Shown here: piece after piece, positions 5,264-62,474 of the stretch
Layout of the letters: each line of letters begins with the position of its first letter
Position numbering within the stretch: position 1 is the stretch's first letter
Source of the DNA: Candidatus Methanoperedenaceae archaeon GB37
Lineage (GTDB): Archaea > Halobacteriota > Methanosarcinia > Methanosarcinales > EX4572-44
Reading direction: 5' to 3'
DNA: 64,000 nucleotides
NCBI GenBank assembly: GCA_905171695.1
Contig: LR991653.1
Coordinates: 1,228,957 to 1,292,956, forward strand
Translations under genes and position numbers: made by a program
Notes under the pieces: generated by a model
What the model was told of the DNA's origin: nothing
What the model saw: only the letters and a program-made list of their open reading frames with translations
Database searches by the model: none

Positions 5264-5303
5264 TATAGTATCACGTCCGTATGTGGTTATGGAGTGATGG
5301 TAT

Positions 5304-6416: not shown

Positions 6417-6417
6417 A

Positions 6418-7422: not shown

Positions 7423-7436
7423 CCTCACACCGCCAT

Positions 7437-8159
7437 TCAGACCTTCATCGCATCCTCGAGGCTGAATCGTTCGAGGTAGAGTGCTGTGCCGACCACAACA
7501 CCACACACTCCACTCTCCTTGAGGATTGCAACGTCTTCGAGCGTTGTGATACCGCCCGATCCGATCACAGGTATTCTGACCGCTCTCACAAGCTCTGCAG
7601 TGGGTTCTGGACGAACGCCCTGGAGCATGCCCTCGGTCTCAATGTTGGTGAATAGTATGCTCCCTGCGCCGAGCCTCTCGAACTCCCGCGCGTACTCGGT
7701 CGGGGTGAGACTCGTCTTCTCTCTCCACCCATGGGTTGTGACCTTACCATCTCTTGCATCGAGTGCCACTGTTATGTGCCTCTTTCCGAACTCGTCTGAG
7801 AGATCTCGTACAAACTCTGGGTTTTGGATCGCAGCAGTTCCGATTATCACACGCTCAACCCCTATCTCAAGAAGGCTTGTGACATCAGCGTGCGTCCGAA
7901 TCCCACCGCCCACCTGGACCTCCACACCACCACTCCTTCTAATGATCTCATCGACGAGGTCCTTGTTTTCCCGCACGCCGCCTATCGCACCGTCAAGATC
8001 GATTATGTGAAGTGCCTCTGCGCCCTCTTCGACCCATCTCATTGCAACCCCTACTGGATCTTCTATCGAGACCCGTGTTCTCGTGGGAACGCCCTGCACG
8101 AGCTGAACACAGCGTCCATTCTTCAGATCAACGGCAGGAATTACCTTGAAGATACTCAA
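7437..8159 (-). CDS. hisA: ProFAR isomerase (histidine biosynthesis)
   Basis: 'IPAVDLKNGRCVQLVQG', 'HIIDLDGA', 'VQVGGGIR' and 'VIGSGGI' are a typical HisA (beta/alpha)8 pattern. Confidence 0.9.
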   Translation of the reverse strand: MSIFKVIPAVDLKNGRCVQLVQGVPTRTRVSIEDPVGVAMRWVEEGAEALHIIDLDGAIGGVRENKDLVDEIIRRSGGVEVQVGGGIRTHADVTSLLEIGVERVIIGTAAIQNPEFVRDLSDEFGKRHITVALDARDGKVTTHGWREKTSLTPTEYAREFERLGAGSILFTNIETEGMLQGVRPEPTAELVRAVRIPVIGSGGITTLEDVAILKESGVCGVVVGTALYLERFSLEDAMKV

Positions 8160-9414: not shown

Positions 9415-10428
9415 TGCTGTGTTGAATAACTTTTAAGTTTCCTTCCTGTATTTCTCATTTGCAGGAGGGATGATTGGGATGCAGAGTAAGAGAAATTGGA
9501 AGGAATATAATGAAAAACTTGTGCGGAGGGGAGAACTCTATATCTCATTGGATTTCCTTGAGAACTGGGATGAAGAATTAAATAGGATGAATGAGGGGAA
9601 GGTTGGCAGACCTTTCAGGTTTCCTCGAACCTTTATGTGTTTTCTAGCTTTCTTGCATGTAGCTTTCCTTCCATTAAGACAAATGGAAGGATTTTTGAGG
9701 AAATTATCAGAATATATACCTGAGTTAAAGGTAGCTGATTATTCCACTGTTTGTAAGAGGTTGAGGAAACTAGACTTTGAACTCTCTAGTAATCTTGGAG
9801 AAGATCTTGTAGTTGCAATAGATTCGTCTGGTATGAAGATAACGAATAGAGGAGAGTGGATCAGAGATAAATGGAAAGACGAGAAAGGGTTGGATTAAGG
9901 TTCATATTGCTATAGACGTTAAAACAAGGAAACTCTTAGCCTTAAAGATAACAGATGAAAGAACAGGTGATGGAAAGATGTTAAAACCTCTGGTAAAGCA
10001 AATTAAAGGAAGAGGTGGAGAGATAACTAGGGTATATGGTGATGGAGGTTATGATAGCAGAGAGAATTTCAATTATCTCGCTGAAAATAATGTAGAACCA
10101 GTGATCAAGATAAGAAGTAACTCTTCAACAAAGTCAAGAGGCTCTCCATCCAGAGCTAAGAGAGTAAGAGAACCCAAAAGAGTTAGGTCATGAAAGATGG
10201 AAAGATAAATACAGGTATGGCTGCAGATGGACAACAGAGAGTTTCTTCTCTGGTGTTAAAAGAGTATTTGGTGAAACATGCAGAGCAAGATCTCCAGAAG
10301 CCTTGTTTCAAGAAGTAAAGATGAAATTCATCTTCTACAACATGCTCATAAGTGTTTAAACTTACATTCTCAGAGAAACAATTACCTGAAGATATACCCC
10401 ATCCAGCTAATTGTTCAACACAGCAGCA
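9415..10428 (+). mobile_element. IS5-family-like insertion sequence, copy A (1014 bp, inactivated)
   Basis: Terminal inverted repeats tgctgtgttgaa...ttcaacacagca. 5-bp direct duplication TTACG at 9410-9414 and 10429-10433. Near-identical to copy B in inverse orientation. Confidence 0.85.
9470..10359 (+). pseudogene. IS5-like transposase, frameshifted by a 1-nt insertion near 9878
   Basis: Copy A reads atggaaaGacgag where copy B reads atggaaaacgag. This breaks the 240-aa ORF into 9470..9898 and 9978..10193. Confidence 0.85.
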
Positions 10429-10469
10429 TTACGGAAAAATATTTATATTATAATGCCTAATTGACCATT

Positions 10470-11867
10470 ATGAGCTTCATCAGATACAAGAAGTTCGGGA
10501 ACAAAGAATATGCTTACGAGGTAACATCTTACTGGGATCCTGAAAAGAAGAAGCCGAGGCAGAAAACAAAGTATCTGGGAGTTGTTGTTGACAAGGAGAA
10601 GAAAATATTCAAGAAAAAGAGTAGAGAGAGGAGAGAGAAGTTAATTCTAGATTTTGGTGATACTTATTTCCTCAACCAGTTCATCAATAGAGTAACATTC
10701 TTTGAGAACATTAAAAAAGATATGTTTCTTCCACTCATCTTCTACCGATTGTGTTATCCATCTGCAATGAGGTATGCAAGGATATGGTATGAGGGCAACA
10801 TAGTCAGGAAGTTCTTTGACGTTGATATAAGTTCACAAAGAATAAGTGAGTTTCTTGAGGAGATTGGTGATGAAAGCATCCAGAGGGGATTCTTCAAAGA
10901 ATACATCAAACAGATAACACCCTCAGAAGGAATAGTAATTGATACAACTGCTCTTCCAAACCAGATAAATATTCCAAGATCAGCATGGGGATGGCATAAC
11001 GAGGAAATAGAGAAACAAATCAAGTTGTTACTTGTTATTGACAGGAGTACATCACTTCCTTTGTTTTTCAGGTATATTGCAGGTAATATTGTTGATGTGT
11101 CAACCCTCAAGGCAACTGTGGAGGAGTTAAAGAAGTATGGTGTATCAAGATACTTCGTCATTCTTGATGCAGGATTCTTCTCTGAAGAGAATATAACGGA
11201 GCTTTACAATGAGGAAATACAGTTCCTGACAAGGCTACCCTCCTTAAGGAAGCTGTACAAGAGGCTTATTCTTGAGGAATCCAGAGAGTTAGAGAGTTAC
11301 AGGAATGCTGTAAGGTATGGGAGAAGAGTACTGTTTGTAAAGCAAAGAGAAGTTGAGTTATTTGGTAAAAGAGTTTATGCTTATGTTGTACTTGATCCTG
11401 AAAGAAAGGGAAGAGAGATGAGAAAAACTCTGCTTAAGGTAATGGATGAGATTGAAGAGGACGGGGAAGAGGAGATGGAATACATTTTGATGAAGAAGGG
11501 GATAATGATTCTCATTTCCTCTTCTGAACCGGATAGAGAGAATGTAATATCTTTGTATTACACAAGACAGATTGCAGAAAAGCTGTTTGGCTTTTCGAAG
11601 GATGATCTGAACCTGCTTCCTCTGAGAGTGCATAAGGAAGAGACGCTGAGGGGCTACCTGTTTCTGCAGTTCGCTTCACTTGTTGTTTATTCACTGCTGA
11701 AGAGAGAATTAGGGAGAGATTACACTGTGGAGGAGGTTCTGCTCACCTTAAGGAATCTGAAGTGTAAGGTGTATGAGGATGAGATTATTGTCCAGGAATT
11801 AACCAAGCAGCAAAGGAAGATTTTTGAGAAGTTTGGTATCATGGTGCCTAAAAGTATGGGAATTTAG
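10470..11867 (+). CDS. IS1634-family transposase
   Basis: N-terminus 'MSFIRYKKFGNKEYAYEVTSYWDPEKKKPRQKTKYLG' is typical of IS1634/IS4-related archaeal transposases. ATG at 10470 preferred over the tracked TTG at 10461. Confidence 0.75.
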   Translation: MSFIRYKKFGNKEYAYEVTSYWDPEKKKPRQKTKYLGVVVDKEKKIFKKKSRERREKLILDFGDTYFLNQFINRVTFFENIKKDMFLPLIFYRLCYPSAMRYARIWYEGNIVRKFFDVDISSQRISEFLEEIGDESIQRGFFKEYIKQITPSEGIVIDTTALPNQINIPRSAWGWHNEEIEKQIKLLLVIDRSTSLPLFFRYIAGNIVDVSTLKATVEELKKYGVSRYFVILDAGFFSEENITELYNEEIQFLTRLPSLRKLYKRLILEESRELESYRNAVRYGRRVLFVKQREVELFGKRVYAYVVLDPERKGREMRKTLLKVMDEIEEDGEEEMEYILMKKGIMILISSSEPDRENVISLYYTRQIAEKLFGFSKDDLNLLPLRVHKEETLRGYLFLQFASLVVYSLLKRELGRDYTVEEVLLTLRNLKCKVYEDEIIVQELTKQQRKIFEKFGIMVPKSMGI

Positions 11868-12097
11868 GAAATTGGGAATTTGATATGGTGGATATCCATC
11901 TAAATAGTGATAGCGATAATTATTTTGAGCTTTAATCTGTTTATATCTTTTACTATTCCACTTCTCGGACCTGTCCACATAAAATTATAAGTGCGGGAGA
12001 CCATCTTTTATTTATGCTGAGGGTAAGGGAAATTGTTGAAGAGTTGAAGGGTGTTTGAGAGGAGTAAGGTGCCTTTTGAGGTTAAGATTTTCGGTAT

Positions 12098-13110
12098 TGC
12101 TGCTGTGTTGAACAATTGGCTGGATGGGGTATATCTTCAGGTAATTGTTTCTCTGAGAATGTAGGCTTAAACACTTATGAGCATGTTGTAGAAGATGAAT
12201 TTCATCTTTACTTCTTGAAATAAAGCTTCTGTAGATCTTGCTCTGCATGTCTCTCCAAATACTCTTTTAACACCAGAGAAGAAACTCTCTGTTGTCCATC
12301 TGCAGCCATACCTGTATTTATCTTTCCATCTTTCATGACCTAACTCTTTTGGGTTCTCTTACTCTCTTAGCTCTGGATGGAGAGCCTCTTGACTTAGTTG
12401 AAGAGTTACTTCTTATCTTGATCACTGGTTCTACATTATTTTCAGCAAGATAATTGAAATTCTCTCTGCTATCATAACCTCCATCACCATATACCCTACT
12501 TATCTCTCCACCTCTTCCTTTAATTTGCTTTACCAGAGGTTTTAACATCTTTCCATCACCTGTTCTTTCATCTGTTATCTTTAAGGCTAAGAGTTTCCTT
12601 GTTTTAACGTCTATAGCAATATGAGCCTTAATCCAACCCTTTCTCGTTTTCCATTTATGTCTGATCCACTCTCCTCTATTCGTTATCTTCATACCAGACG
12701 AATCTATTGCAACTACAAGATCTTCTCCAAGATTACTAGAGAGTTCAAAGTCTAGTTTCCTCAACCTCTTACAAACAGTGGAATAATCAGCTACCTTTAA
12801 CTCAGGTATATATTCTGATAATTTCCTCAAAAATCCTTCCATTTGTCTTAATGGAAGGAAAGCTACATGCAAGAAAGCTAGAAAACACATAAAGGTTCGA
12901 GGAAACCTGAAAGGTCTGCCAACCTTCCCCTCATTCATCCTATTTAATTCTTCATCCCAGTTCTCAAGGAAATCCAATGAGATATAGAGTTCTCCCCTCC
13001 GCACAAGTTTTTCATTATATTCCTTCCAATTTCTCTTACTCTGCATCCCAATCATCCCTCCTGCAAATGAGAAATACAGGAAGGAAACTTAAAAGTTATT
13101 CAACACAGCA
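12098..13110 (-). mobile_element. IS5-family-like insertion sequence, copy B (1013 bp)
   Basis: Same terminal repeats as copy A. 5-bp duplication GGTAT at 12093-12097 and 13111-13115. The uninterrupted target is visible in the MITE copy (cccggtgttgcaacc). Confidence 0.9.
12167..13055 (-). CDS. IS5-like DDE transposase in two overlapping frames (orfA 13055-12333; C-terminal frame continues to 12167)
   Basis: orfA is the 240-aa ORF. The next frame encodes 'ERWKDKYRYGCRWTTESFFSGVKRVFGE', the Y-x-x-R-x-x-x-E signature carrying the catalytic Glu of IS5-type DDE enzymes. Confidence 0.7.
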
Positions 13111-35152: not shown

Positions 35153-35448
35153 TAATGCTATAGCAAGATGAACGGCCCAATCTGGAATTTAGATCACCTT
35201 CTCACCGGGGTTGTAAAGTTATTGGGTGTTGGCGTTGTTTCGGCCTGGTTATGTATTTAAGTCTCATGTCTGCTTTTCTGGGTCTGGACACACGAAAGAA
35301 CTCAGAGTTTTGGCATAACACCCAACAAGTTGACAGTCCCTTCTCACCGAAAACTATAAAGAGTAGATATCTCATAATAATCATAATAGTGTAATGTCTG
35401 TAAGGTTTTGCAGTCCTTATAAATGTTTGCATTGGAGAGGAAAAAATA

Positions 35449-49108: not shown

Positions 49109-51117
49109 AGATCTTCAGTTTGAAGAGTTATGGTATATCCTGTTTTGCAGTATTTTTCTATCTTTTCATCTCTTTTCTCATTCTATTTTATTTTAAAGGA
49201 AATTATATATTAACGTTGGATATGGTCTTCCCGTGTAAAAATTCTTTTGAAGAGTACTTTTATGGTTTCAGTCCTCCTGTTTGGGGCGGAACTCTGCCCA
49301 TACACGCAACTATGAAGTTCTCCAGCATAATGCCTGCATGGTTGCTGCAGAGAATTTACCTCTCTTTAATCATACTTCTCGCTGGAATCTCTATGCATCT
49401 CCTGGTGAAGACAGAGTCTTCCGCTCCAAAGTACTTTGCAGGCATCCTTTATGCCGTGAATCCGTTTGTCTATGTGAGATTTCTTGCAGGGCACTGGTTC
49501 ATCCTGCTTGCCTATTCAATCATGCCCTTTGCAGTTAAATCCTTTATCGATCTGCTTGAAGACGGGAAGAGGAGGAATATTTTAAAGTCCCTCTTCCTGA
49601 CGACCCTCGTAGGTGCCATCAATTCCCATATTCTTGTCCTCTTGTCTCTATTATACGTGGTTTTGGCGGCTTTTAAGTTGTACCATGTAAAGAGCGAAGT
49701 GGGTGCTGTAAAAAGACTGCTTGCCTCTCTATCCATACTTGTAGTGCTATACCTCTTGCTCAACCTATACTGGCTCCTCCCTCTACTCACTGCAGACGCA
49801 ACGTTGATACACCAGATATCAGAGGCTGACATGTATCTATTCGCCACAAAGACCTCAGCCTTCAATGCGGTCTTCACGATCGCAAGCATGTATGGGTTCT
49901 GGCGAGGCGGGTATCTCTATCCACAGGACTTTATTCCCCACTGGTATCTCTTCTTTCTCTTCATCCTTTTCTTGGCAGTGCACGGATTTATCAGCAATTG
50001 CAGGAGTAAGACTCTCAGCCTGCCTGTGAGATCCTTTGCAGTAGTTGCAGTGATTGCAGTGGTCCTGGGTTCTGGTGTGTATGGACCGTTCCATTCATTC
50101 TTTGAACTCTTATTTAACAACATATTCTTCTTTAGGGGTCTGAGAGATTCTCACAAGTTTGCCGCGCTTCTCGCCTTTTCATACTCATACCTCGGGGCGC
50201 TTGGGGTCTATGAATTTGAAAAGATAGCGCGCAGCGCCAGTATCACTGATTCATACAGGAAAATAGGTGCGCTGGCAGTCGTTCTCTTGGCACTGATAAC
50301 ACCTTTTCTTTACTCTTTCACGATCTTCAACGGCTTCTGGGGACAGATGAATACTACGGACTACCCGGACGACTGGTATCAGGTTAATGAATTACTTAAT
50401 CGGGATGATGAAGATTTTAACGTGCTTTTCCTCCCATGGCACGCATACATGGACTTCAAGTGGATTCCTAATACCCAGAAGAGGGTTGTGAATCCTGCTT
50501 CAGGCTTCTTCGAGAAGCCTGTGATTCAAGGGTGGAATATGGAGTCAGGGGGCATATACTCCCAATCCACCAACCCGGCTCAGCGCTACGTAGAATCTTT
50601 GCTGTATAATAGAAGTAATATAACCAGTTTTGGTGAGAAGATGGTTATTTTAGATGTGAAATACGTGCTTTTGACAAAGGAAGTAGATTACGATGAATAT
50701 TTCTTTCTGTTCAACCAGACTGACTTAGAACTGATAAAAGAGACTGAAAATTTCTACGTGTTCAAAAATAATCATACTGTCTCTCGATTTTACCGTTCGC
50801 CTACCCCTGTCACTCTTGAATCCTGGAGAGAACCCGATTTTGTCGAGTCTCTAACACCTATCAGCTACAAAGAAAACTCTCCTGTTAAATTCGATGTGCG
50901 AGGAGAGAGTGGCTTCATCGTCTTCGTTCCACCGAACCTGGACTCTCGATACTGGGAATTCGAGGGCACGCCCTCTCATCTGGACGGCTTTTATGCGGTT
51001 TATCCGGCTGGTGAGGGATCCATTTACTACACTCGGTTCAATATATGCCTCATCGGGTATCTTCTCTCACTTCTCACGCTGATAGGTATTTTAGGAACTC
51101 TCAATCATTGGATCTGA
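49105..51117 (+). CDS. Polytopic membrane protein paralogous to 42840..46004; GT-C-like candidate
   Basis: Shares 'LDMVFP' (against GDLIFP), 'LRDSHKFAA' (against FRDPNKWEG), 'DDWYQVNELLNRDDEDFNVLFLP' (against EEYYMVNNWLANQNGDFKVSWLP) and a C-terminal TM anchor. Confidence 0.55.
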   Translation: MKIFSLKSYGISCFAVFFYLFISFLILFYFKGNYILTLDMVFPCKNSFEEYFYGFSPPVWGGTLPIHATMKFSSIMPAWLLQRIYLSLIILLAGISMHLLVKTESSAPKYFAGILYAVNPFVYVRFLAGHWFILLAYSIMPFAVKSFIDLLEDGKRRNILKSLFLTTLVGAINSHILVLLSLLYVVLAAFKLYHVKSEVGAVKRLLASLSILVVLYLLLNLYWLLPLLTADATLIHQISEADMYLFATKTSAFNAVFTIASMYGFWRGGYLYPQDFIPHWYLFFLFILFLAVHGFISNCRSKTLSLPVRSFAVVAVIAVVLGSGVYGPFHSFFELLFNNIFFFRGLRDSHKFAALLAFSYSYLGALGVYEFEKIARSASITDSYRKIGALAVVLLALITPFLYSFTIFNGFWGQMNTTDYPDDWYQVNELLNRDDEDFNVLFLPWHAYMDFKWIPNTQKRVVNPASGFFEKPVIQGWNMESGGIYSQSTNPAQRYVESLLYNRSNITSFGEKMVILDVKYVLLTKEVDYDEYFFLFNQTDLELIKETENFYVFKNNHTVSRFYRSPTPVTLESWREPDFVESLTPISYKENSPVKFDVRGESGFIVFVPPNLDSRYWEFEGTPSHLDGFYAVYPAGEGSIYYTRFNICLIGYLLSLLTLIGILGTLNHWI

Positions 51118-51880
51118 GTGCCCCGAAGAAGAGGCACTCGTCTCTCGGTATCAGAGGGATCTCTTGGGCCTCTCCATCCCCCCGGTCTCTCATGTATAGC
51201 CCTGTGCCTCTTGCAATGACCGCTGGCACTCCTTCGCTTGCCTCTCCCATCAGGAGTTGTGCAGCGCTTGCAAGGTTGTCTGCGATCGCTCTCTGCGTGA
51301 TTCTGAGTGGCTTGCCATAGAGATCTCTTCTGCCACGGGCATCTTCCACTGGTTCTATCCCACTGCATCCAAGTGCAACCCCGATCGTTCCGAGTCGGAG
51401 GGGCTGTGTGCGACTATCACTTATGATAACAGCACACCTGCACCCATAGTGCTCTTCAAGAGCGCTTCGTATCTCTCTAGCACTCGCTGTTGGGTTGAGG
51501 GGCATCAACGTGACATGTCCCTCTGGCGCGTTCGAGGAGTCAATCCCGGTATTCGGTGATAGAACGCCCCGTGTGATCGTGAGCACGACGCCCGGTACAC
51601 CGCCGATTATCTCGTCAGCCTCTCTCAGTATGAGCTCCATCTCGCGTGGTTCGATCATGTACTTCTCAGCGAGCCTCAAAGCCTCCTCGGTGGGCGTTAC
51701 GCTGCTCAGGTCAACGAGTCGCCCCTCGGTCGTTGCAACAGCCGACTCTGCGATTATGAAGATGTCGCCATCCTCTGGTGTGATGCGCTCCTTCTCCATC
51801 GATCCTATGAGAGCGTCAGAGATCCTGTCCTCTGGGGTTAGGATTGGTGTTCTCACCGGGATAAAGACCAATTGCTGCAT
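51101..51880 (-). CDS. cofE: Coenzyme F420-0:L-glutamate ligase
   Basis: 'PEDGDIFIIAESAVATTEGR' and 'AVIISDSRTQPLRLGTIGVALG'. Confidence 0.85.
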   Translation of the reverse strand: MQQLVFIPVRTPILTPEDRISDALIGSMEKERITPEDGDIFIIAESAVATTEGRLVDLSSVTPTEEALRLAEKYMIEPREMELILREADEIIGGVPGVVLTITRGVLSPNTGIDSSNAPEGHVTLMPLNPTASAREIRSALEEHYGCRCAVIISDSRTQPLRLGTIGVALGCSGIEPVEDARGRRDLYGKPLRITQRAIADNLASAAQLLMGEASEGVPAVIARGTGLYMRDRGDGEAQEIPLIPRDECLFFGALRSND

Positions 51881-51886
51881 AAATCC

Positions 51887-53122
51887 TTAGAGGTACTCTT
51901 TTAATCGTAGAATTGCACAGTACTCTCCACACATGCTGCAGATGCCACCAGTCTCCCTGCGCATCTCCTCTGGTCTTCGAGGCTCGATCGCATGCGAGAG
52001 CTGCCCACTCCAATCGAGCATACTTCTCTTAACTGCAAGTCTGCGATCCCTATCTGATGGCATGTACTTGATGCTGTCACCGATATGGGCTGCTATCCTG
52101 AAAGCCGTTAAACCTTCTCTCACGTCTTCCACGCCTGGGAGGCAGATGTGCTCGGCAGGTGTTACTGCACAGAGATAATCAGCCCCGGCTCCACTTGCGA
52201 GAGCTGCCCCGATACTTGCCGCAATATGGTCATATCCAACCGCCACATCGGTTGGCAAGGGGCCTGCAACGAAGAGTGGGCGATCCGCGACCTCTTTATG
52301 GTATCGCACAGACTCTGGTATGAGTGCTGGCGCCACATGCCCGCCCATACCCTCGATTATCACCTGCACACCTGCTTTGTTTGCCTCCTCTGCAAGCCGT
52401 GCATTGAGCTCCAGCTCCTCTCTCTGCAAGCAATCGGGCATGTCATGAACACATCCGCTTCGAAGACTGTTTCCGAGAGATAATACCACATCCCTCTCAC
52501 GAAGGATCTCGAGTATCTCGTCGAAGTGCTCAAGAAACGGGTTATCTCTATTATTCTTCAGCATGCAAAGACTCGTGAGACTACCACCCTTCGATACCAT
52601 GGTAAGGATTCGTCTGCTCTTCTTCAACTTCAGGACCAGCTCTCGCGTGATTGTATGGATCACGATCGAGCTCACACCAGACCTGACATCCTCCTCTATC
52701 CGCGAGAGTATATCCCTATCTCTCATCGTCCATCCATTCTCAGCCACACACTGATAAATCGGAACTGTTGTGAGTGGAATCGTGGTGCTGGCGAGGATCT
52801 GGCGTCGTATCTCCTCGAGATCTCCACCCATCGAGAGATCTGTTATGGTATCTGCAGAATAAGCCTCTGCAACCCTTGCCTTCTCAACCTCGAGATCGGT
52901 CTCTCTCGATGCTGTGGATGTTCCGATGTTGACATTGACCTTTGTCCGAAGCCCCTTCCCAATGCCGCAGACGCCTCTCCTGCCTCCCTTGCGAGTCATG
53001 ATGACGGTTCTGCCACTTGCAATATCAGATCTGAGGAGTTCTGGCTCGATCTCTTCTTCCATTGCAACTCTCTTCATCTCTCCTGTAACGATGCCATCGG
53101 TTGCAGACTCTATCTGTGTCAA
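51887..53122 (-). CDS. thiC: Phosphomethylpyrimidine synthase
   Basis: 'TITDLSMGGD', 'IEGMGGH' and the C-terminal 'CSMCGEYCA'. Start taken at the TTG at 53122 ((M)TQIESATDGIVTGEM). The tracked extension to 53305 runs through a tRNA gene. Confidence 0.85.
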   Translation of the reverse strand: MTQIESATDGIVTGEMKRVAMEEEIEPELLRSDIASGRTVIMTRKGGRRGVCGIGKGLRTKVNVNIGTSTASRETDLEVEKARVAEAYSADTITDLSMGGDLEEIRRQILASTTIPLTTVPIYQCVAENGWTMRDRDILSRIEEDVRSGVSSIVIHTITRELVLKLKKSRRILTMVSKGGSLTSLCMLKNNRDNPFLEHFDEILEILRERDVVLSLGNSLRSGCVHDMPDCLQREELELNARLAEEANKAGVQVIIEGMGGHVAPALIPESVRYHKEVADRPLFVAGPLPTDVAVGYDHIAASIGAALASGAGADYLCAVTPAEHICLPGVEDVREGLTAFRIAAHIGDSIKYMPSDRDRRLAVKRSMLDWSGQLSHAIEPRRPEEMRRETGGICSMCGEYCAILRLKEYL

Positions 53123-53209
53123 GATGAACGCTCCATAACTCTTCCAAACCTGCTGTTTTATTACGATACGCTTAAATTCGATGAAAGCGATCTCTTCGGC
53201 TGTCACAGA

Positions 53210-53283
<74 letters not shown>

Positions 53284-53311
53284 TCATGGATAGTTCGCCT
53301 TTCAATCACTT

Positions 53312-54481
53312 TTATCTCTTCACCACCTTCTTCACAAGTTCAGCCAGGCGATCCGAGTTCAGTTCCTGCTTCCTCTCCCGACACTCTTTTATGACGTCGA
53401 CGAGTTCGCATAACTGATCCCGCGAGAGGTCGTGGTATCCCATGTGCTTCAGCACTCCAAGGAGCGCTCTTCTCCCGGTATGCTTTCCAAGTATGAAGCT
53501 CCGCTCTGCACCTATCAGCTCTGGCGGATAAGCCTCGTAAGTGATAGGATTCTCGAGTATGGCCGCGACGTGTATGCCTGACTCGTGTGCAAATGCATTT
53601 CTACCAACTATCGACTTGTTCGATGCAACCTTCACACCCGAGCACTCCTCAACGAGTCTGGAGAGGCTTGTGAGCCTCGATAGATCGTACTTATCGATCC
53701 CGTGCTCGAGGCGGAGTGCAAGGAGAACCTCTTCGAGCGCTGCATTACCACTCCGCTCACCTATGCCGTTTACCGTGGTATGCAACTGTTTCACTCCCGC
53801 TTCTGCTGCTGTGATCGTGTTTGCAGTTGCCATCCCGAGATCGTCGTGGCAGTGAATGCATAACTCGCTCTTTCTCACACTATCTTTGATCTCACTGACG
53901 AGGTACTCTGTGGTGGCTGGCGTGAGAATGCCGACCGTGTCTGCAATGCTCACATAATCTGCGCCACGCGCCTCTGCCGCGAGGAATATATCCTTCAACC
54001 TGGGTATGGGGGTACGGGTTGCATCCTCTGCTGCAAACCGAACCACGACACCATGCGACTTGGCATACTCAAGGGTATCAAGCGCTCTCTCCCGCACGGT
54101 CTCATACCTCGAGTGATACTTGTACTCGATATGGATATCTGAGGTTGCGATGAAGATACTGATGATGTCAACGTCACAATCGAGTGCTATCTCCACATCC
54201 TCTCTCTTCGAACGTGCAAGAGAGCAGATCTTGGCATCAAGTCCGAGCTGTGCGACTCGCTTTATGGTCTCCTTCTCAACACTGGAGACGACCGGAAAAC
54301 CTGCTTCGATGATCTCAACACCGATCTCGTCAAGCCGCTCTGCAAGCCTGATCTTCTCATCCATTGTGAACGCAGCCCCAGGAGTCTGCTCACCATCCCG
54401 GAGCGTAACATCACAGATCTCAACCTCAGGTGGCCTTCGCCCGATGGAATCATAGTAGATATTCTTTGAGAGGAGATCCAT
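53312..54481 (-). CDS. aksA: Homocitrate synthase-type enzyme (short LeuA/NifV/AksA family, no regulatory domain); probable coenzyme B biosynthesis
   Basis: 'ICDVTLRDGEQTPG' and 'HCHDDLGMATANT'. 389 aa, so it lacks the LeuA C-terminal domain. Confidence 0.7.
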   Translation of the reverse strand: MDLLSKNIYYDSIGRRPPEVEICDVTLRDGEQTPGAAFTMDEKIRLAERLDEIGVEIIEAGFPVVSSVEKETIKRVAQLGLDAKICSLARSKREDVEIALDCDVDIISIFIATSDIHIEYKYHSRYETVRERALDTLEYAKSHGVVVRFAAEDATRTPIPRLKDIFLAAEARGADYVSIADTVGILTPATTEYLVSEIKDSVRKSELCIHCHDDLGMATANTITAAEAGVKQLHTTVNGIGERSGNAALEEVLLALRLEHGIDKYDLSRLTSLSRLVEECSGVKVASNKSIVGRNAFAHESGIHVAAILENPITYEAYPPELIGAERSFILGKHTGRRALLGVLKHMGYHDLSRDQLCELVDVIKECRERKQELNSDRLAELVKKVVKR

Positions 54482-54512
54482 AAGAGGAGAACTACAAGGA
54501 TAACTGGATACT

Positions 54513-55016
54513 TCAACGCTCGAAGAGTTCGGTATCGATCACACTATCCAGCACGTAATCAAAATCGATATGATCATACCAGCCTGCTCGCTCAAAGATC
54601 CCCATGAAACAGAGGCCTATAACAAGCCCATTGCCACCAGTTATCGTTTCAACGAGCCTCGCCACTTCAACTGGGTCGACACCGATCTTCGGCATCGCAA
54701 GCCCGCCGAGTACCGCGACGGTATCGCCATGAAAATCAACCTCGCGTCCAAGCTGCATCCCCTGTGGAGTTGGGACGATCTCCCGTGCATGCTCGAGATC
54801 AAGACCAGCGACAAAGACCATCTCCTTTCCAGAGTCTCTGAGAGCATACGCCAGAAGCTCGGCAAAGGGGGTGCAGAAACCGATCGAACCGACGAAGACT
54901 ATCCGCTTAGAATCCTTCACAAGCTCCCTGAAGGGTATCATCATGCCGGCAAGTGCAGGCTGCTTCGAAACAGATCTCATCACAACAATCCTCCAAGACC
55001 AGCCATCTCCTATCAC
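54513..55016 (-). CDS. Conserved archaeal hypothetical protein (possibly DUF2124/COG4029-like)
   Basis: 'RIVFVGSIGFCTPFAELLAYALRD'. Family name recalled from memory and unverified. The start could be an internal Met. Confidence 0.4.
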   Translation of the reverse strand: MIGDGWSWRIVVMRSVSKQPALAGMMIPFRELVKDSKRIVFVGSIGFCTPFAELLAYALRDSGKEMVFVAGLDLEHAREIVPTPQGMQLGREVDFHGDTVAVLGGLAMPKIGVDPVEVARLVETITGGNGLVIGLCFMGIFERAGWYDHIDFDYVLDSVIDTELFER

Positions 55017-55143
55017 ACCATCAATATATGAAGTTATCGAAAAAGATGGATTACGATCTATTCCAGAGTGCCGAGAAAACCAGTAAGTATATCAAGCAGA
55101 AAAACAACTCGGAAGATTATAACATTGAAGCAGGTATGTAACT

Positions 55144-55848
55144 ATGAAGTTGCTCGTAAGCCCGATTAATGTCGAGGAGGCACAGATCGCTGTAGAAGGC
55201 GGTGCAGATATCATCGATGTGAAGAATCCGAGGGAAGGGTCGCTCGGTGCGAACTTTCCATGGGTCATCAAGAGTGTCAGGGATGCTGTGAAAGAACCAT
55301 TGAGCGCTACAATTGGCGATTTTAACTTCAGACCAGGGACTGCTTCTCTCGCTGCACTCGGCGCTGCCGTCTCCGGCGCAGATTATATAAAAATTGGATT
55401 ATTTGATATTCAGACGCGAGAACAGGCATATAAAATGGCAGAGAGCGTTACAAAATCAGTTAAAGAATACGATCCAAATAAGAAGGTAGTAATAGCTGGA
55501 TATTCTGATTATAAGCGAATAAATTCCATATCGGTATTTGAACTGCCCGCTGTAGCAGGCGATGTCGGCGCCGACGTGGTGATGATGGATACAGGCATCA
55601 AAGACGGGAGTTCAACCTTTGAGTTCCTGAGAGATGAAGAGATCAGCGAGTTCGTTGACCTCGCGCGCCAGCACGGGATTCAAACAGCGCTTGCAGGATC
55701 TCTCAGATTCGAGGACATCGATGCACTCAACGAGATAAATCCTGACATAATCGGTGTGCGTGGATGCGTCTGTGGCGGCGATCGCAGCGCTTCAATCAAG
55801 CTCGAACTTGTGAGAGAACTTAAAAACTCCTTGAACGGATCCCAATAG
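55144..55848 (+). CDS. mfnB: (5-formylfuran-3-yl)methyl phosphate synthase (methanofuran biosynthesis)
   Basis: 'MKLLVSPINVEEAQIAVEGGADIIDVKNPREGSLGA', a DUF556/MfnB pattern. Confidence 0.8.
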   Translation: MKLLVSPINVEEAQIAVEGGADIIDVKNPREGSLGANFPWVIKSVRDAVKEPLSATIGDFNFRPGTASLAALGAAVSGADYIKIGLFDIQTREQAYKMAESVTKSVKEYDPNKKVVIAGYSDYKRINSISVFELPAVAGDVGADVVMMDTGIKDGSSTFEFLRDEEISEFVDLARQHGIQTALAGSLRFEDIDALNEINPDIIGVRGCVCGGDRSASIKLELVRELKNSLNGSQ

Positions 55849-55885: not shown

Positions 55886-57544
55886 TTAAGAGGGGCATCC
55901 GTTCTCCTTCCAGCCACGTAGCGCGTAGTATCTATCGAGTTCTTCTTCAAATCCAGCTGGTTTCATTATCTCTGGCAGCGTGTCATCCTCACGGTTGAAG
56001 CCTCGCTTGCAGTTGAACTCTCGTTCCATCTGAACGATCCTACTCCCCAGTCTCTGCATGTATTCCTCGCTAGCGTCTCCTGTAATCTTTGACAAGACCT
56101 TCAGGTAGTCTTCGAGTGTGTAGAACCTGACTGAGAACTTACAGAGCGAGATCGAGTCGAGTACCGCGTTTCTGTTCTCGTTGTATATTACCCGCTCTGC
56201 CTTTCCACTTATATTGTTTCTCCCAGGGTCTCCGTACTCTTCGATGTACTCCATGCTGTAGAGGTGATCGGCGCCGCGGTTCGATACCGCGTAGGAGAGC
56301 CCCTGCCCTGCTGCCCCACGAGCGTCGTGTCCAGGGAGGTCCATGCCCTTCACGGTGTAGGATGGGACTCTGCATCTCTCTGCGAAAGCTCTGGCGCCGC
56401 AAGCAAGTTCTGCACCGATCCCCTCCCTTTTAGCTATCAATTCAATCACTTCGTGCACCTTCTCGCCATCACCCCACTCGATCTCGTACTGAACGCGCCC
56501 ATTCTCACTTGCCTCCATCAAAGTCGCGATTGCAGCACCTGTCGATAGCGTGTCAAGCCCATATCTGTTGCAGAGGTAATTTGATTTTATGATGTCGTCA
56601 AGGTCGTTTACACAGAGGTTCGATCCGAAGCTCATCAGTGTCTCGTACTCTGGCCCCTCTGTTATTATCCCGTGCTTCTTGCTCTTTGTCACTCGCTTAC
56701 ATGCAATGAGACAACTGTGACAGGTGCTCCGGTTGATCGTGTACTCGCGGAGTGCCTCGCCGTTTATCATCTTAGCATCTTCGTAGACGGTTGTTGAGTA
56801 GTTTCTGGTTGGGAGTGCATTGTTATCATTTGCTACCTGAAGAATGCTCGATGTTCCCATCAACTTCAGACCTGCAACACCGTCAACGACCTTCTTCCAG
56901 AGGCCTGCCTCGATATCACGATACTGGTCTGATGGAATCGATGTGTTACCGGTTGCAACGATCGCTTTCAGGTTCTTGCTGCCCATCACAGCGCCGAGTC
57001 CGCCACGACCGAACGCTCGATGGAGCTGTGTCATGATATTTGCAAAGTAGACACCTCGCTCCCCCGCGGTGCCTATGACAAGGATATTTCGAAAGCGCAC
57101 CTTGCACTCCATCTTCAATCTCATCGTGGTGCTGAAGACGTCAGATCCCCAGAGGTGGGAAGCGTCTCGAAACTCGACACCACTCTCATCGATCCATAGA
57201 TAGAGTGGTGAGGATGCTCGTCCCTCGATTATCACACCACTGTAGCCTGTGCGGAGAAGTTCGCACCCGAAGTTCCCACCCGCGTTGGAGCTGAAGATAG
57301 TCTCTGTGAGTGGTGAGATGCTCGTTGTGCTGTGGCGAGCAGAGAATGGAATTGAGGAGCCTGTGAGCGCACCTGGGGTGAATATCAGTTTGTTCTCCTG
57401 GTGGAGAGGCTCTACGCTCGGCTCAACCTCCCTCGTGAAGAGAGCTACACCGAGACCTCTGCCACCAATAAACGACGAAACCTCAGGATCGACCTCTTCA
57501 ACATCACCAGTCTCTCTCCTAAGATTCACACGCAGGATCTTCAT
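55886..57544 (-). CDS. aor: Aldehyde:ferredoxin oxidoreductase family (tungstopterin) enzyme
   Basis: 'MKILRVNL...GGRGLG' N-terminus, [4Fe-4S] ligand motif 'CHSCLIAC' and 'GLDTLSTG'. Start taken at 57544. Confidence 0.85.
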   Translation of the reverse strand: MKILRVNLRRETGDVEEVDPEVSSFIGGRGLGVALFTREVEPSVEPLHQENKLIFTPGALTGSSIPFSARHSTTSISPLTETIFSSNAGGNFGCELLRTGYSGVIIEGRASSPLYLWIDESGVEFRDASHLWGSDVFSTTMRLKMECKVRFRNILVIGTAGERGVYFANIMTQLHRAFGRGGLGAVMGSKNLKAIVATGNTSIPSDQYRDIEAGLWKKVVDGVAGLKLMGTSSILQVANDNNALPTRNYSTTVYEDAKMINGEALREYTINRSTCHSCLIACKRVTKSKKHGIITEGPEYETLMSFGSNLCVNDLDDIIKSNYLCNRYGLDTLSTGAAIATLMEASENGRVQYEIEWGDGEKVHEVIELIAKREGIGAELACGARAFAERCRVPSYTVKGMDLPGHDARGAAGQGLSYAVSNRGADHLYSMEYIEEYGDPGRNNISGKAERVIYNENRNAVLDSISLCKFSVRFYTLEDYLKVLSKITGDASEEYMQRLGSRIVQMEREFNCKRGFNREDDTLPEIMKPAGFEEELDRYYALRGWKENGCPS

Positions 57545-57604
57545 AGTATACTCAGGTTTGGGTGTTGAATTATATATGCTTATTCTATTCAACGGGGATG
57601 TCAA

Positions 57605-57933
57605 CTCGTTTGGGTGTTATCTCAGAGCCGAGATTTTTCCAGAATATAAGCTTATTGGTTGTGTTCTCTTCTTTGGTCTCAGACGTTTAAAATATATCAA
57701 AATATATCAGAGATAAATAAATATTTTTAAAAAATATTGTATCTTTATAACGGTTTATCATGATCAAAGCAAAAAACTTAAATACAAACAGCATCTCATA
57801 TCCACCATTGAGGATTGTGATGGTGAATGATGGTACACAGAAACGAGTACTCTATAGGATGAGTATTGAGTATTCTGTGAATTGTGTACCAGAACCTGAG
57901 ACATTCTCAAAAAATATGGAGGAACGAATATAA
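57605..57933. promoter_or_regulatory. Divergent AT-rich promoter/leader region between aor and mcrB
   Basis: Tandem aaatatatca x2 (57691-57710), near-palindrome aatatttttaaaaaatatt (about 57719-57738), TATA-like ctttataa (57743-57750), and GGAGG 10 nt upstream of the mcrB ATG. No transcription start can be assigned. Confidence 0.4.
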
Positions 57934-59337
57934 ATGGCCTATCTAACAGAAAAAATAGATCTATACGGGGACAATGGTAAGGTGCTGGAATCAGACATTC
58001 CACTCGAAGCTGTAACACCAGTGCAGAACCCCGCTGTAAGAGAGCTTGCAAGCATCTTCAAGCGTTCCGTTGCAGTGAACCTTGGAGGAGCACAGAAAGC
58101 CCTCTCAACTGGACACTATGCCAACGAGTATATACACTTTCCAGATATACCGAACAAAGATAAACTTGGAATAAAGAGTTCTCCCGGTGGCAAATACCCA
58201 CCAAAGTCGGTTAAAGTACGAACCATGGACCTGCCACTCGTAGACGATGCAGATGACATCGCGGCACGGCTCAAAGAGAGACTCCAGGTCAACCCTGACG
58301 ATGGAACAGAAGTCAGAGTAATGAAGAAGGGGAACGTGCTCTACGTCAAGATCTCGGAGCAGCTTGCAAATACAGGTGTCGAGTACACAACGGCACTCAC
58401 AACAACTGCACAGGCAATGACCGATCTTGTGATGGAGAAGTACGATCTCGACTTCCACGCTTCCCCACTCGTCCACTGTGCATTCTATGGACGATACCCA
58501 CAGACATACGAGTTCATGGGCGGAAACGTGATCTCACTACTTGCCGCAAGCTGTGCAAATGAGGGACCAGGATTCGCCATGCGAAACATTATGGCAAACC
58601 ATATTGTGGCAGCAACAAGGAAGAGAACTCTGGAAGCTGTCGCTCTGAGCTCAACGCTGGAAGCCATTGGTCATGTTGAGATGGGTGATGCAATCGGCAG
58701 GTGGAGACGGTGGCAGGCACTCGTGCATGCATGCCAGGGACTGAACGCAAACAATGTGGTCTACGACCTTGTGAAGGAAGCCGGCCATGGCTGCACAGGT
58801 GATGTTGTTGCAGCAACCGTCGGAAGAGCACTTGAAGATGGAATCATATCTGTAAAGAAGACACTGCCATCTGGCTACAAGTTCTACACAGCAAACGATC
58901 CCTCGATGTGGAACGCCTATGTATGCGCAGGACTCGTTGCAGCAGTTATAGTCAACCAAGGTGCGGCACGAGCGGCACAGGGTGTATCATCAACACTGCT
59001 CTACTTCAACGACCTGATCGAGCACGAGACAGGACTACCCCACGCAGGCTATGGTGATGGCATGGGTAATGGTGTAAGCTTCTCGTTCTTCAGCCACGCT
59101 ATATATGGTGGCGGAAGCCCCGGTATCTTCAGCGGCAACCACATCGTGACCCGCCACTCCAAGGGATTCGCAATACCCGTCATCGCAGCGGCGGTATCTC
59201 TCGATAGCGGCACAGCGGTCTATGGGCCTGAGGCAACATCAGGACTCGTAGGAGATATCTTTGGCGAAGTGGACCTTATACGCAGGCCAATGGAAGCGAT
59301 CGCAAGTGCAGCAGCAGAGATAAAGGACAAGTTCTGA
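57934..59337 (+). CDS. mcrB: Methyl/alkyl-coenzyme M reductase beta subunit
   Basis: 'GRYPQTYEFMGGN', 'NQGAARAAQGVSSTLLYFNDLIEHETGLP' and 'FFSHAIYGGGSPGIFSGNHIVTRHSKGFAIP'. Confidence 0.9.
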   Translation: MAYLTEKIDLYGDNGKVLESDIPLEAVTPVQNPAVRELASIFKRSVAVNLGGAQKALSTGHYANEYIHFPDIPNKDKLGIKSSPGGKYPPKSVKVRTMDLPLVDDADDIAARLKERLQVNPDDGTEVRVMKKGNVLYVKISEQLANTGVEYTTALTTTAQAMTDLVMEKYDLDFHASPLVHCAFYGRYPQTYEFMGGNVISLLAASCANEGPGFAMRNIMANHIVAATRKRTLEAVALSSTLEAIGHVEMGDAIGRWRRWQALVHACQGLNANNVVYDLVKEAGHGCTGDVVAATVGRALEDGIISVKKTLPSGYKFYTANDPSMWNAYVCAGLVAAVIVNQGAARAAQGVSSTLLYFNDLIEHETGLPHAGYGDGMGNGVSFSFFSHAIYGGGSPGIFSGNHIVTRHSKGFAIPVIAAAVSLDSGTAVYGPEATSGLVGDIFGEVDLIRRPMEAIASAAAEIKDKF

Positions 59338-59351
59338 AGAGGTGAAGAAGA

Positions 59352-60152
59352 ATGGTATATCAAAGACAATTTCTCCCAGCAGACGATAGAGTCACAAAAA
59401 ACAGAAAGAAAGTGGTGGATCCAAGCGTTAAATTGGAGAAGATCCGAACACTTTCCGATAAGGACTTCCTGACCCTGATAGGACACCGACATCTCGGTGA
59501 AGCATACAGGTCAGTGAACCCACCACTTGCCGAGATCGGCGAGCCAGAGGATCCAATAAGAGAGCTTGTACCACCTACCGAAGGTGCAAAGGCAGGAGAC
59601 AGGGTGTGCACAATCATCATGACAGACTCGGTCTACAACCCACCGATCGCACACTACACCAGGGCATGGATGTACCACAATAGATTCAGAGGTATCGACA
59701 ACGGTGTCTACTCTGGACGAGTGACACTTGAGATGCGTGAGCGTGACCTTGAAGAGGCATGCAGGACCCTCTTCGAGACAGAGATCTGCGATGCGTCAAG
59801 GGATCAAGTCAGACAGTACACCTGCACAGGCCACAGCTGCAGGCTTGACCCAGACGGTATGATGTTTGATCCCATAGAGCGATGCATTATGTCAGGTGGT
59901 AACGTTGTCTACCAGAAAGACAGCTTCGGAAATCCTGTGGATACACCAATCAATATGGGCAAACCATTATCAGAGGAAGAACTCATAGAGAGAACGGTTG
60001 TATACAGGACGGATCGTGGTGAGCCGATGACACGCGAGGGCGATCCAGGAGCGCCAGATGAAGAGGTCAGAGAAGCACTCCAGTGGAGCCGCAGAATCCA
60101 GTGGCTCAGAATGCTCGGGAACATGGTTCCTGACAAGATAAAGGGAATGTAA
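59352..60152 (+). CDS. mcrG: Methyl/alkyl-coenzyme M reductase gamma subunit
   Basis: 'GAKAGDRV', 'MRERDLEE' and 'GHSCRLDPDGMMFD'. Confidence 0.9.
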   Translation: MVYQRQFLPADDRVTKNRKKVVDPSVKLEKIRTLSDKDFLTLIGHRHLGEAYRSVNPPLAEIGEPEDPIRELVPPTEGAKAGDRVCTIIMTDSVYNPPIAHYTRAWMYHNRFRGIDNGVYSGRVTLEMRERDLEEACRTLFETEICDASRDQVRQYTCTGHSCRLDPDGMMFDPIERCIMSGGNVVYQKDSFGNPVDTPINMGKPLSEEELIERTVVYRTDRGEPMTREGDPGAPDEEVREALQWSRRIQWLRMLGNMVPDKIKGM

Positions 60153-60166
60153 AGAGGTGAAATGAA

Positions 60167-61954
60167 ATGGTAAAATATCCAAAGCAATTGTTCTTAGAGA
60201 GCAAGAACTCAAAGATGAACTCGATAGAGATGAAATATGGTCAGGATCCAGCGATCAACAGAGCCGAGTTCCACGTATACGGTGGCGTAAGGCAGAGTAA
60301 GAGGAAATCAGAGGCATGGGAAGCAGCAAAGAGAATCACAAAAGAGCGCGGCATACCCAACTACAACCCCGATCTCCACCTGAAGGGCGCTCAGATGGGA
60401 CAGAAGGTCCTGCAGACCTACAGGATAACAGGTCTTGACCGCGAGTGGGCAGGTGGCGAGGACACACCCGCACACAAGGGATGGAAGCCAGGCACAGATA
60501 TCGCCGGGCTTGAAATGGATGACCTCAACTACGAGAACAACCCTGCAATGCAGCAGTGCTACGACGATATGCGAAGAACCGCCATCAATGGCCTTAGCAT
60601 TGCACACGAAACGATAGAGCGCAGATTCGGAAAAGAGGTCACGCCTGAGACGATCAACCTCTACTTTGAGATGCTCAACCACAACATCGGCGCAGGTGCG
60701 ATCATGATGGAGCACACAGCAGAGACAAACCCAGAACTGGTGAAAGACAGCTATGCCAAGTGCTTCACAGGAAACGATGAACTGGCAGACGCACTCGACC
60801 AGCGCTTCTTAATCGACATCAACAAGATGTTTCCGAAGTACCAGGCGGATCAGATCAAGGCAGAGGTTGGAGACAGAATCTTCCAGGTGGCACGCATACC
60901 CACGATGGCAGTACGCACATCAGACGGTGGACTATCACGTGCATGGGTAGGACAGCAGGCAAGCCTTGCCTTCCTCTGTGCATATGATATTCCAGCAGGC
61001 GATGCCGTTACAAGCGACTTCGTCTTCACAATCAAGCACGGTGATGTGGTCTTCATGGGAACACAGCTACCGTACAGGCGTGCCCAGCGGAACAACTCGG
61101 CAGGCGGTATTGCACTCGGATACTACTCAGACTGCAACCAGACAAGCCGCACGCCAGAGGCACTCGAAGGGCTTGACGGCGGAATTGACCCAGTAAAGGT
61201 CATAGTCGAAGCACTCACACCAGGATGCGTCATAACAGACCAGGGATGGCTGCACAACTATTTGGCAGGCGGATCATCAGGCTGGTCAAACTACATAATC
61301 TCAGTCTACACCGATGAGGTGCTCGAAGACTACGGATACCACGGCGCAATCTATGCAATGGACAAATGGAAGTGCGGAGTCGGCGAGGTCCCGAACACCT
61401 ACGAGAACATGATGACAATCGCTGAAGAGGTCTCACGATGGAGTCAGAAGAACTATGACGAGTACCCAGGACTTATGGAGGCACACTTCGGCGGCAGCCA
61501 GAGATACTCGATACAAGCAGCAGCATCTGGTGCGGCAGTCGGCGCAATGACAGGCGACCCTGACCTCGGCAACGCAGCGTGGCACTACAACACACCACTC
61601 TGCAAGGAACACTACCTCAGACTCGGATTCTACGGACACGACCTACAGGATCAGCAGAACATGGGACACACATACTCCTATCGCTCAGACCAAGGCATAC
61701 CATACGAACTCAAAGGGCCAAACTATCCAGACTTTGCAATGAACGTCGGGCACATGGGCGGATACATCGGAATCATCGCAGGAGCAGCACACGCACGTGG
61801 TGCAGCATACTCGACAAACCCGATCATCAAGGCAGCCTTTGCAGACCCCAACCTCCAGTTCGACTTCAGGTACCCACGCAGAGAGTTCGGAATCGGTGGA
61901 CTACGCCAGTTCATGCCAGCAGGCGAACGCGACGCAGTAATCCCACCACATTAA
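60167..61954 (+). CDS. mcrA: Methyl/alkyl-coenzyme M reductase alpha subunit, divergent
   Basis: 'GKEVTPETINLYFEMLNH', 'HFGGSQR', 'LGFYGHDLQDQ', 'GPNYPDFAMNVGH' and 'PAGERD'. Confidence 0.9.
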   Translation: MVKYPKQLFLESKNSKMNSIEMKYGQDPAINRAEFHVYGGVRQSKRKSEAWEAAKRITKERGIPNYNPDLHLKGAQMGQKVLQTYRITGLDREWAGGEDTPAHKGWKPGTDIAGLEMDDLNYENNPAMQQCYDDMRRTAINGLSIAHETIERRFGKEVTPETINLYFEMLNHNIGAGAIMMEHTAETNPELVKDSYAKCFTGNDELADALDQRFLIDINKMFPKYQADQIKAEVGDRIFQVARIPTMAVRTSDGGLSRAWVGQQASLAFLCAYDIPAGDAVTSDFVFTIKHGDVVFMGTQLPYRRAQRNNSAGGIALGYYSDCNQTSRTPEALEGLDGGIDPVKVIVEALTPGCVITDQGWLHNYLAGGSSGWSNYIISVYTDEVLEDYGYHGAIYAMDKWKCGVGEVPNTYENMMTIAEEVSRWSQKNYDEYPGLMEAHFGGSQRYSIQAAASGAAVGAMTGDPDLGNAAWHYNTPLCKEHYLRLGFYGHDLQDQQNMGHTYSYRSDQGIPYELKGPNYPDFAMNVGHMGGYIGIIAGAAHARGAAYSTNPIIKAAFADPNLQFDFRYPRREFGIGGLRQFMPAGERDAVIPPH

Positions 61955-61978
61955 ACAAACAAGACAAAAGAGAATACA

Positions 61979-62012
61979 GAGAGCAGAAAAACCTGCTCTC
62001 CTCTCACTTTTT
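61979..62012 (+). terminator. Hairpin plus T-run downstream of mcrA
   Basis: gagagcag-aaaaac-ctgctctc (perfect 8-bp stem, 61979-62000), followed by ttttt at 62008-62012. Confidence 0.5.
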
Positions 62013-62045
62013 CTATTACCACACCTATTTGATCTTTACTCATCG

Positions 62046-62400: not shown

Positions 62401-62474
62401 TGGGCTCGCGGAGATTCGAACTCCGGACCTTCGCCGTGTGAAGGCGATGTCATAACCAGCTAGACCACGAGCCC
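62401..62474 (-). tRNA. tRNA-Val (anticodon CAC); CCA not encoded
   Basis: Reverse complement GGGCTCGTGGTCTAGCTGGTTATGACATCGCCTTCACACGGCGAAGGTCCGGAGTTCGAATCTCCGCGAGCCCA. Confidence 0.85.

Follow-up and report, generated by a model that had tools for sequence, protein, structure and literature searches.

Two neighbouring units with probably separate promoters at the aor_2/ethyl-coenzyme M reductase locus of Ca. Ethanoperedens thermophilum

In the archaeal genome studied here, aor_2, a gene of the aldehyde:ferredoxin oxidoreductase (AOR) family, and mcrBGA, the operon for ethyl-coenzyme M reductase (ECR), are read away from each other across a short spacer, and our analyses indicate that they are likely to be two neighbouring units with back-to-back, separate promoters, aor_2 being accessory. 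The window, that is the whole stretch of 64,000 nucleotides that was analysed, is G000:C1:1228957-1292956 of a closed genome (G000) of 1,922,745 bp. The locus is not new. It is the already published aor_2/ethyl-coenzyme M (ethyl-CoM) reductase site of Ca. Ethanoperedens thermophilum (Hahn et al. 2020, mBio, PMC7175092), in which FHEFKHOI_01408 lies beside mcrBGA (FHEFKHOI_01410-01412) with the same gene lengths and order. The DNA is identical, and our account differs from the published one only in the expression figure, in the restriction of the adjacency to one genus and in the separation of the promoters.

In the organisation that we favour, the ECR operon would be read rightwards from a promoter block conserved in the family (57726-57790), through a non-coding leader of about 160-180 nt, to a GGAGG ribosome-binding site. 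aor_2 would be read leftwards as a single-gene transcript from its own TATA-like box, flanked by repeats specific to the aor side. Its product would be an accessory ferredoxin-linked aldehyde/acid oxidoreductase and not the indispensable enzyme that converts ethyl-CoM to acetyl-CoA. The features concerned are the following:

55886-57544, minus strand: aor_2 (FHEFKHOI_01408), AOR-family protein of 552 aa, stand-alone and monocistronic, with Pfam domains AFOR_N and AFOR_C.
55893-62017, no strand: syntenic block of the genus Ethanoperedens, 84-86% identical by blastn to genome G001 and contig L035.
57558-57566 and 57610-57618, plus strand: two copies of the direct repeat TTGGGTGTT, bracketing the aor_2 TATA-like box.
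57570-57577, minus strand: TATA-like box ATATATAA of aor_2, 26-33 nt before the ATG, a putative promoter element.
57583-57626, plus strand: remnant with homology to an end of a ~140-bp repeat.
57627-57725, no strand: variable middle of the spacer, with AAATATATCA twice in tandem (57690-57709) and a 38-nt indel relative to G001 and L035.
57726-57790, plus strand: mcr (ecr) promoter and leader-start block, with AAAAATATTG, TTTATAA at 57744-57750, GGTTTATCATG and CTTAAATACA; TATA box and transcription start are putative.
57760-57933, plus strand: mcr 5' leader, annotated as the hypothetical coding sequence (CDS) FHEFKHOI_01409 of 174 nt, with a hairpin at 57831-57891 and GGAGG at 57918-57922.
57934-61954, plus strand: mcrB-mcrG-mcrA, ECR, with full-length matches to PDB 7B1S.

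An open reading frame (ORF) and domain scan of the window resolved the operon into mcrB (57934-59337), mcrG (59352-60152) and mcrA (60167-61954), all opposite in strand to aor_2. McrA, McrB and McrG each gave a full-length match in PDB 7B1S (chains A, B and C, at 1406.7, 1052.9 and 618.5 bits, respectively), the score of McrA, the alpha subunit, being equal to its own self score (1406.3 bits). This structure and 7B2C, both labelled 'ethyl-coenzyme M reductase', are matched end to end by the three subunits. The genome holds a single mcrA copy and four AFOR_N-bearing genes. Gene lengths around the locus agree with those of tags FHEFKHOI_01403-01413 of Hahn et al. 2020, aor_2 having 1659 nt in their Table S3. 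Genome size (1,922,745 bp) and GC (46.5%) agree with that paper too. According to these authors, methanogenesis genes are found near the aor copies or share operons with them, and an AOR is proposed as the enzyme of the ethyl-to-acetyl conversion (PMC7175092). Hence AOR as a candidate for the steps from alkyl-CoM to acyl units, which was cited in the original prediction made from this DNA, is already in print for this very organism. On its other side, aor_2 converges on mfnB (end at 55848) and is therefore a single-gene unit with no partner-subunit gene.

Comparisons were made within the genus Ethanoperedens, represented by three lineages (the source genome, genome G001 and the metagenome contigs L034 and L035), and with four metagenome-assembled genomes (MAGs) of a sister genus (G002-G005, 56-82% complete), whose McrA is about 70% identical to that of G000; family comparisons thus cover six genomes, G000-G005. 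A metagenome scan for the locus yielded 3 loci, L035 being JGI contig Ga0209013_10003256. The spacer was aligned between G000, G001 and L035, and a separate alignment was made for the four sister-genus genomes.

The spacer (57545-57933) is 389 bp long and has 32.4% GC versus 46.5% for the genome. It was correctly described at the outset as an AT-rich region of about 390 bp between divergent aor and mcrB genes, with a tandem (aaatatatca twice, 57690-57709) and a near-palindrome (AATATTTTT-A-AAAAATATT, 57720-57738). The tandem 10-mer was found only in G000 and is absent from the other two Ethanoperedens lineages; of the palindrome, the right arm alone is conserved among them. Neither of these small A/T-rich elements is in itself a sign of function. 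In addition, 38 nt that are present in G001 and L035 are missing from the middle of the G000 spacer.

The spacer has two conserved blocks, putative promoters, about 170 bp apart, and the sequence between them has indels. The aor-side one, TTGGGTGTTGAATTATATA (57558-57576), which holds the TATA-like box, is invariant in the three Ethanoperedens lineages and could not be aligned with the aor_2 upstream regions of the sister genus. No GGAGG or other Shine-Dalgarno motif precedes the aor_2 ATG, which, together with the short distance of the TATA-like box, suggests that the aor_2 mRNA is probably near-leaderless. On the mcr side, the promoter block is nearly invariant in the six family genomes, four of which (the sister-genus ones) have no aor upstream, and in contig L035; the ribosome-binding region of mcr is also conserved in the four sister-genus genomes. 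No conserved element common to both promoter sides was found in the alignment of G000, G001 and L035, and the repeats of the aor side are not matched by any near mcr. Because the blocks lie about 170 bp apart, the middle is variable and the mcr block alone is shared with the sister genus, we conclude that the promoters are distinct and that only the mcr one is ancient.

The repeat TTGGGTGTT occurs five times in the window versus 0.44 expected. Both spacer copies are kept in L035; in G001 one of them has a single mismatch. At the scale of the genome no enrichment was seen (20 hits versus about 23 for permuted motifs), and a 21-mer of the mcr promoter has one other near match, located before an unrelated kinase-like gene; a shared regulon motif was rejected on these grounds. 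Searches against Rfam gave no match in the spacer or the leader, the sole hit being a tRNA at 62401-62474.

These observations bear on the reading put forward in the original prediction, namely that aor_2 and ECR form a co-regulated two-module unit, in which ethane activation and the AOR-catalysed oxidation of an ethyl-CoM-derived intermediate are coupled through a single divergent control region. The AOR hypothesis of the literature (PMC7175092, PMC10322722, PMC10811742) is in line with it, as are the transcription of both aor_2 and ECR during ethane growth, the intact divergent block of 6.1 kb in three Ethanoperedens lineages with different flanks, and the presence, in one of them (L035), of fer4-aor_3 directly after aor_2. 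However, a spacer whose two promoter sides share no conserved element around a variable middle, and an mcr promoter and leader that are the same in the sister genus without an adjacent aor_2, speak against it. We therefore regard such a unit as unlikely, an opinion to which both the distribution of the pair and its expression contribute.

Within the genus, the divergent aor_2-mcr pair is kept in G001, where aor_2 is 84% identical, and on contigs L034 and L035. When compared by blastn with G001 and L035, the conserved aor_2-mcrBGA block ends exactly at 55893 and 62017, and the flanks differ. The block is bordered on the aor side by mfnB (G000), a NurA-like region (G001) or fer4-aor_3 (L035). 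On the mcrA side, what adjoins it in G001 and L035 lies 142 kb off in G000. In the sister genus the aor_2 ortholog (73% identical) lies on other contigs than mcr and is followed by ccmE, and no aor was found within 2.8-7.8 kb upstream of mcrB in G002-G005. The G002 ortholog is a pseudogene, with stops and a frameshift across its first ~130 codons (the 5' third), and none was found in G003, a genome that is 78% complete. The adjacency with mcr is thus kept in the three Ethanoperedens lineages and not kept in the four sister-genus genomes, and an ortholog that is unlinked, decayed or not found there argues against the co-regulated unit. Judged by the yardstick of the original prediction, a loss of adjacency in relatives, the prediction is contradicted at family level but not at genus level. 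The genes next to the locus in G000 vary as well: the cofactor genes cofE, thiC, aksA-like, DUF2124 and mfnB (window 51101-55848) did not turn up in the corresponding flank sequences retrieved for G001 or L035, and this neighbourhood is therefore specific to genome G000. Contig L035, from a third Ethanoperedens-like lineage, carries (L035:3582-10445) mcrA-mcrG-mcrB leftwards, then aor_2, fer4 and aor_3 rightwards, and ends inside aor_3.

Farther away, an AOR gene was located within 3.5 kb of a divergent, alkyl-coenzyme M reductase (ACR)-type mcrA in 2 of 10 other genomes of the phylum (G259:C6 and G302:C290). By our own estimate, chance alone would give about 0.7 such genomes, the genome sizes and the copy numbers in each genome (1-14 AOR, 1-7 mcrA) being taken into account. 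As other genes intervene in both cases and the AORs are paralogs and not aor_2 orthologs, they were not counted as support for a conserved unit. G302 carries seven mcrA-like and thirteen AOR genes in all; its C290 contig (L043:4099-11740) shows, on one strand, genes for an AOR, an acylphosphatase, a 424-aa ORF without Pfam match, a divergent mcrA-like protein, a 172-aa ORF and a B12-radical SAM protein.

The expression of aor_2 was then reconsidered from the published data. The main text of Hahn et al. 2020 quotes 'RPKM aor = 3,805 and 7,928' (PMC7175092), in reads per kilobase and per million of mapped reads (RPKM), and later papers justify AOR by its high expression in Ca. Ethanoperedens (PMC10811742, PMC10322722). 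Table S3, in its whole-genome sheet, lists aor_2 (1,659 nt) with a raw count of 11,282 and an RPKM of 6,652.58. The summary sheet of the same paper assigns exactly these values to mcrB. Since RPKM is the raw reads divided by the gene length in kb and by the million mapped reads, the raw/RPKM ratio reveals the length that was used. Across 15 consecutive rows within tags 01399-01415, each of the three replicates gave a length that belongs to the gene listed two rows further down. The RPKM consistent with 1,659 nt, and hence the corrected one for aor_2, is 916, 924 and 954, compared with 6,653-7,928 for mcrB, 5,846-7,535 for mcrG and 9,790-12,352 for mcrA. The quoted 7,928 is therefore mcrB in replicate 2, and, as the main text quotes shifted figures, the offset sits in the published source table itself. 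The high expression published for aor_2 thus appears to be an artefact of a shifted table, and gene-by-gene reuse of the whole-genome sheet of Table S3 yields wrong values.

After correction, aor_2 is transcribed 7-13 times below the ECR genes. This gap, in place of a near-parity that was created by the row shift, is a further argument against co-regulation. Of the shared control region and two-module unit originally proposed, what remains is the linkage at genus level; promoter anatomy, the state of the sister genus and corrected expression contradict the rest.

The linkage could also be a neutral result of mobile-element rearrangement in the Ethanoperedens ancestor, with aor_2 serving general aldehyde/acid redox housekeeping unrelated to ethane catabolism. 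The spacer does contain a repeat-family end remnant beside the aor_2 promoter: in local alignments, 57583-57626 scored 41-52 with the end of the ~140-bp repeat versus a shuffle maximum of 27-30. Moreover, G002 carries a DDE transposase fragment directly upstream of mcrB, the lineages differ in what borders the block, aor_2 is decayed in G002, and the members of its short AOR clade, 47-53% identical, are labelled as Methanosarcinales or Thermoplasmata MAGs. On the other hand, the limits of the block enclose exactly four genes in three lineages, as selection for linkage would also give, and aor_2 is intact, with all catalytic residues retained and a transcript level well over the median of the genes sampled. 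A neutral origin of the adjacency is hence a possibility to be taken into account, although we hold it to be the less probable one.

The transposase fragment of G002, of the DDE_3 type, is situated about 470 bp from mcrB (L032:6964-7350, G002:C14), and the DNA ahead of the reductase operon seems to rearrange readily. Full copies of the ~140-bp repeat are present at window 35208-35340, G000:C1:1315658-1315806 and G000:C1:1409905-1410042, and partial ones at 412236 and 1845673 (G000:C1). Its imperfect terminal inverted repeats contain TTGGGTGTT / AACACCCAA. The repeat has no Rfam match and its fold only weakly beats shuffles (z = -1.9); it could be an element resembling miniature inverted-repeat transposable elements or a small RNA.

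We also evaluated the integrity of the aor_2 protein. Its two Pfam domains are AFOR_N (residues 2-199, E 4.6e-72, 242 bits) and AFOR_C (residues 224-552, E 2.2e-102, 343 bits), and its best solved relative is the tungsten AOR of P. furiosus (PDB 1AOR, E 1.5e-116, end-to-end alignment), which has the same two domains. In the phmmer alignment to 1AOR, from which residue equivalents were numbered by hand count, all four [4Fe-4S] ligands (P. furiosus Cys288, 291, 295 and 494, pattern CxxCxxxC...C) have cysteine equivalents, the catalytic Glu313 and His448 are conserved, and the second pterin motif DxxGxC is conserved as DSISLC. In contrast, the first motif reads NRYGLD, Asp338 being replaced by Asn, and aor_2 is about 50 residues shorter than 1AOR (552 versus ~605 aa), with several small deletions and without the final ~16 residues. 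aor_2 also belongs to the same family as the catalytic subunit of AorABC of Aromatoleum aromaticum (PDB 8C0Z, E 4.8e-94), but no gene for a ferredoxin-like or a flavin/F420 subunit adjoins it. Its nearest homologs share 98, 85, 84, 76 and 73% identity with it and the next ones, outside the family, at most 53%; aor_2 belongs with them to a short AOR clade of ~550 aa, whose source-named members carry Methanosarcinales and Thermoplasmata MAG labels. AOR-family genes as such were found in most of the other genomes of the order (31 of 35). Together, these results show that aor_2 is an intact AOR-family member with its cofactor ligands kept. What the sequence shows behind the label 'tungsten-type' of the original prediction is family membership and the kept ligands; the metal itself cannot be read from it. 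Tungsten has been found in the Fwd enzyme of Ca. Ethanoperedens thermophilum (PMC11493965).

The G002 pseudogene, the short length and the Asn in place of Asp338 could be taken as signs that aor_2 is a decaying, non-functional paralog in Ca. Ethanoperedens thermophilum as well. This is highly improbable, since the frame is open with the four cluster cysteines, Glu313 and His448 kept, the protein is 84% identical to intact orthologs of the genus, the gene is transcribed at ~920 RPKM and the short length is common to the whole clade.

Several points speak against the preferred reading, in which aor_2 is an accessory gene with a promoter of its own. The aor_2-mcrBGA block outlived rearrangement on both sides in three lineages with its spacer unbroken, which may reflect selection for linkage. 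ECR in L035 is accompanied by two AOR genes, the fer4-aor_3 cluster directly following aor_2. Even when corrected, ~920 RPKM places aor_2 in roughly the top 15% of the ~107 genes sampled. Finally, the published expression covers one growth condition and the transcription starts are predicted ones, so that coordinated regulation may still exist; the sister-genus MAGs are 56-82% complete. In Ethanoperedens, ECR could be imagined to belong, together with one or two AORs (aor_2, plus fer4-aor_3 in some lineages), to a catabolic island under selection, with an AOR encoded there acting directly on the ethyl-CoM-derived intermediate. If true, this AOR would supply the step that is missing between alkyl-CoM and acyl-CoA; we consider the proposal rather improbable.

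The leader of the reductase operon deserves a separate description. The 174-nt ORF (57760-57933) annotated there was rejected as a real gene, as its frame is broken by an 11-nt deletion in G001 and it is conserved as nucleotides and not as codons. The region is nevertheless transcribed, with a corrected RPKM of 4,549-5,197 for the hypothetical CDS. It forms a stable hairpin at 57831-57891 (z = -3.3), which is maintained with G-U changes and variation in the loop; a helix upstream of it contains 2 covarying pairs. The leader (57755-57933) is conserved across two genera and may control the translation or stability of the ECR mRNA.

The same genome offers a second AOR paralog beside genes of the methanogenesis pathway, aor_1. 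The string mtrH-mer-aor_1-DUF2193 (527 aa)-small ORF is found at L037:3948-10098 (G000:C1:509900-516100) and on L039, L040 and L041. The synteny mtrH-mer-aor_1-DUF2193 is kept in both genera and aor_1 is 85-91% identical across the family. Unlike aor_2, which is divergent from its neighbour and linked to it in one genus, aor_1 is co-oriented with its neighbours and linked to them in both. At this locus (tags 00595-00601) Table S3 is shifted by one row. By our own arithmetic, the quoted 3,805 fits mer (996 nt), whose corrected RPKM is 3,185-3,805, and the corrected value for aor_1 is 4,290-5,278, so that aor_2 is expressed 4.5-6 times below aor_1. The same arithmetic gives ~6,830 RPKM for the DUF2193 gene and ~14,950 for the 276-nt ORF FHEFKHOI_00597. 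DUF2193 is an uncharacterised archaeal family, and its gene is here among the most highly transcribed. These data show that aor_2 is the least conserved AOR in the family and that aor_1 is better conserved and more expressed; aor_1 would accordingly be a stronger candidate than aor_2 for the conversion of ethyl-CoM to acetyl-CoA.

A further paralog, aor_3 (600 aa), lies at L038:4090-7401 (G000:C1:1872090-1875400) between the genes of a 156-aa poly-ferredoxin and a 344-aa FrhB/FdhB-like protein, the start of the latter overlapping the aor_3 stop. By analogy, this cluster resembles a multi-subunit AOR and may be linked to F420, which would agree with the coupling of CODH and Fwd to F420 that has been reported for Ca. 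Ethanoperedens thermophilum. The best matches of aor_3 in the sister genus are only ~50% identical.

The step that turns alkyl-CoM into acyl-CoA is the chief one still unsolved in archaeal alkane oxidation, and AOR is the most cited candidate for it. The present results change the weighing of these candidates in two respects. The 7,928 RPKM quoted for the mcr-adjacent copy is really ~920, and this copy is the least conserved, whereas aor_1, beside mer/mtr and DUF2193, is conserved and highly expressed. Since the aor_2 figure is artefactual and aor_2 is the least conserved copy, biochemical effort would be better aimed first at aor_1 and at the aor_3 complex.

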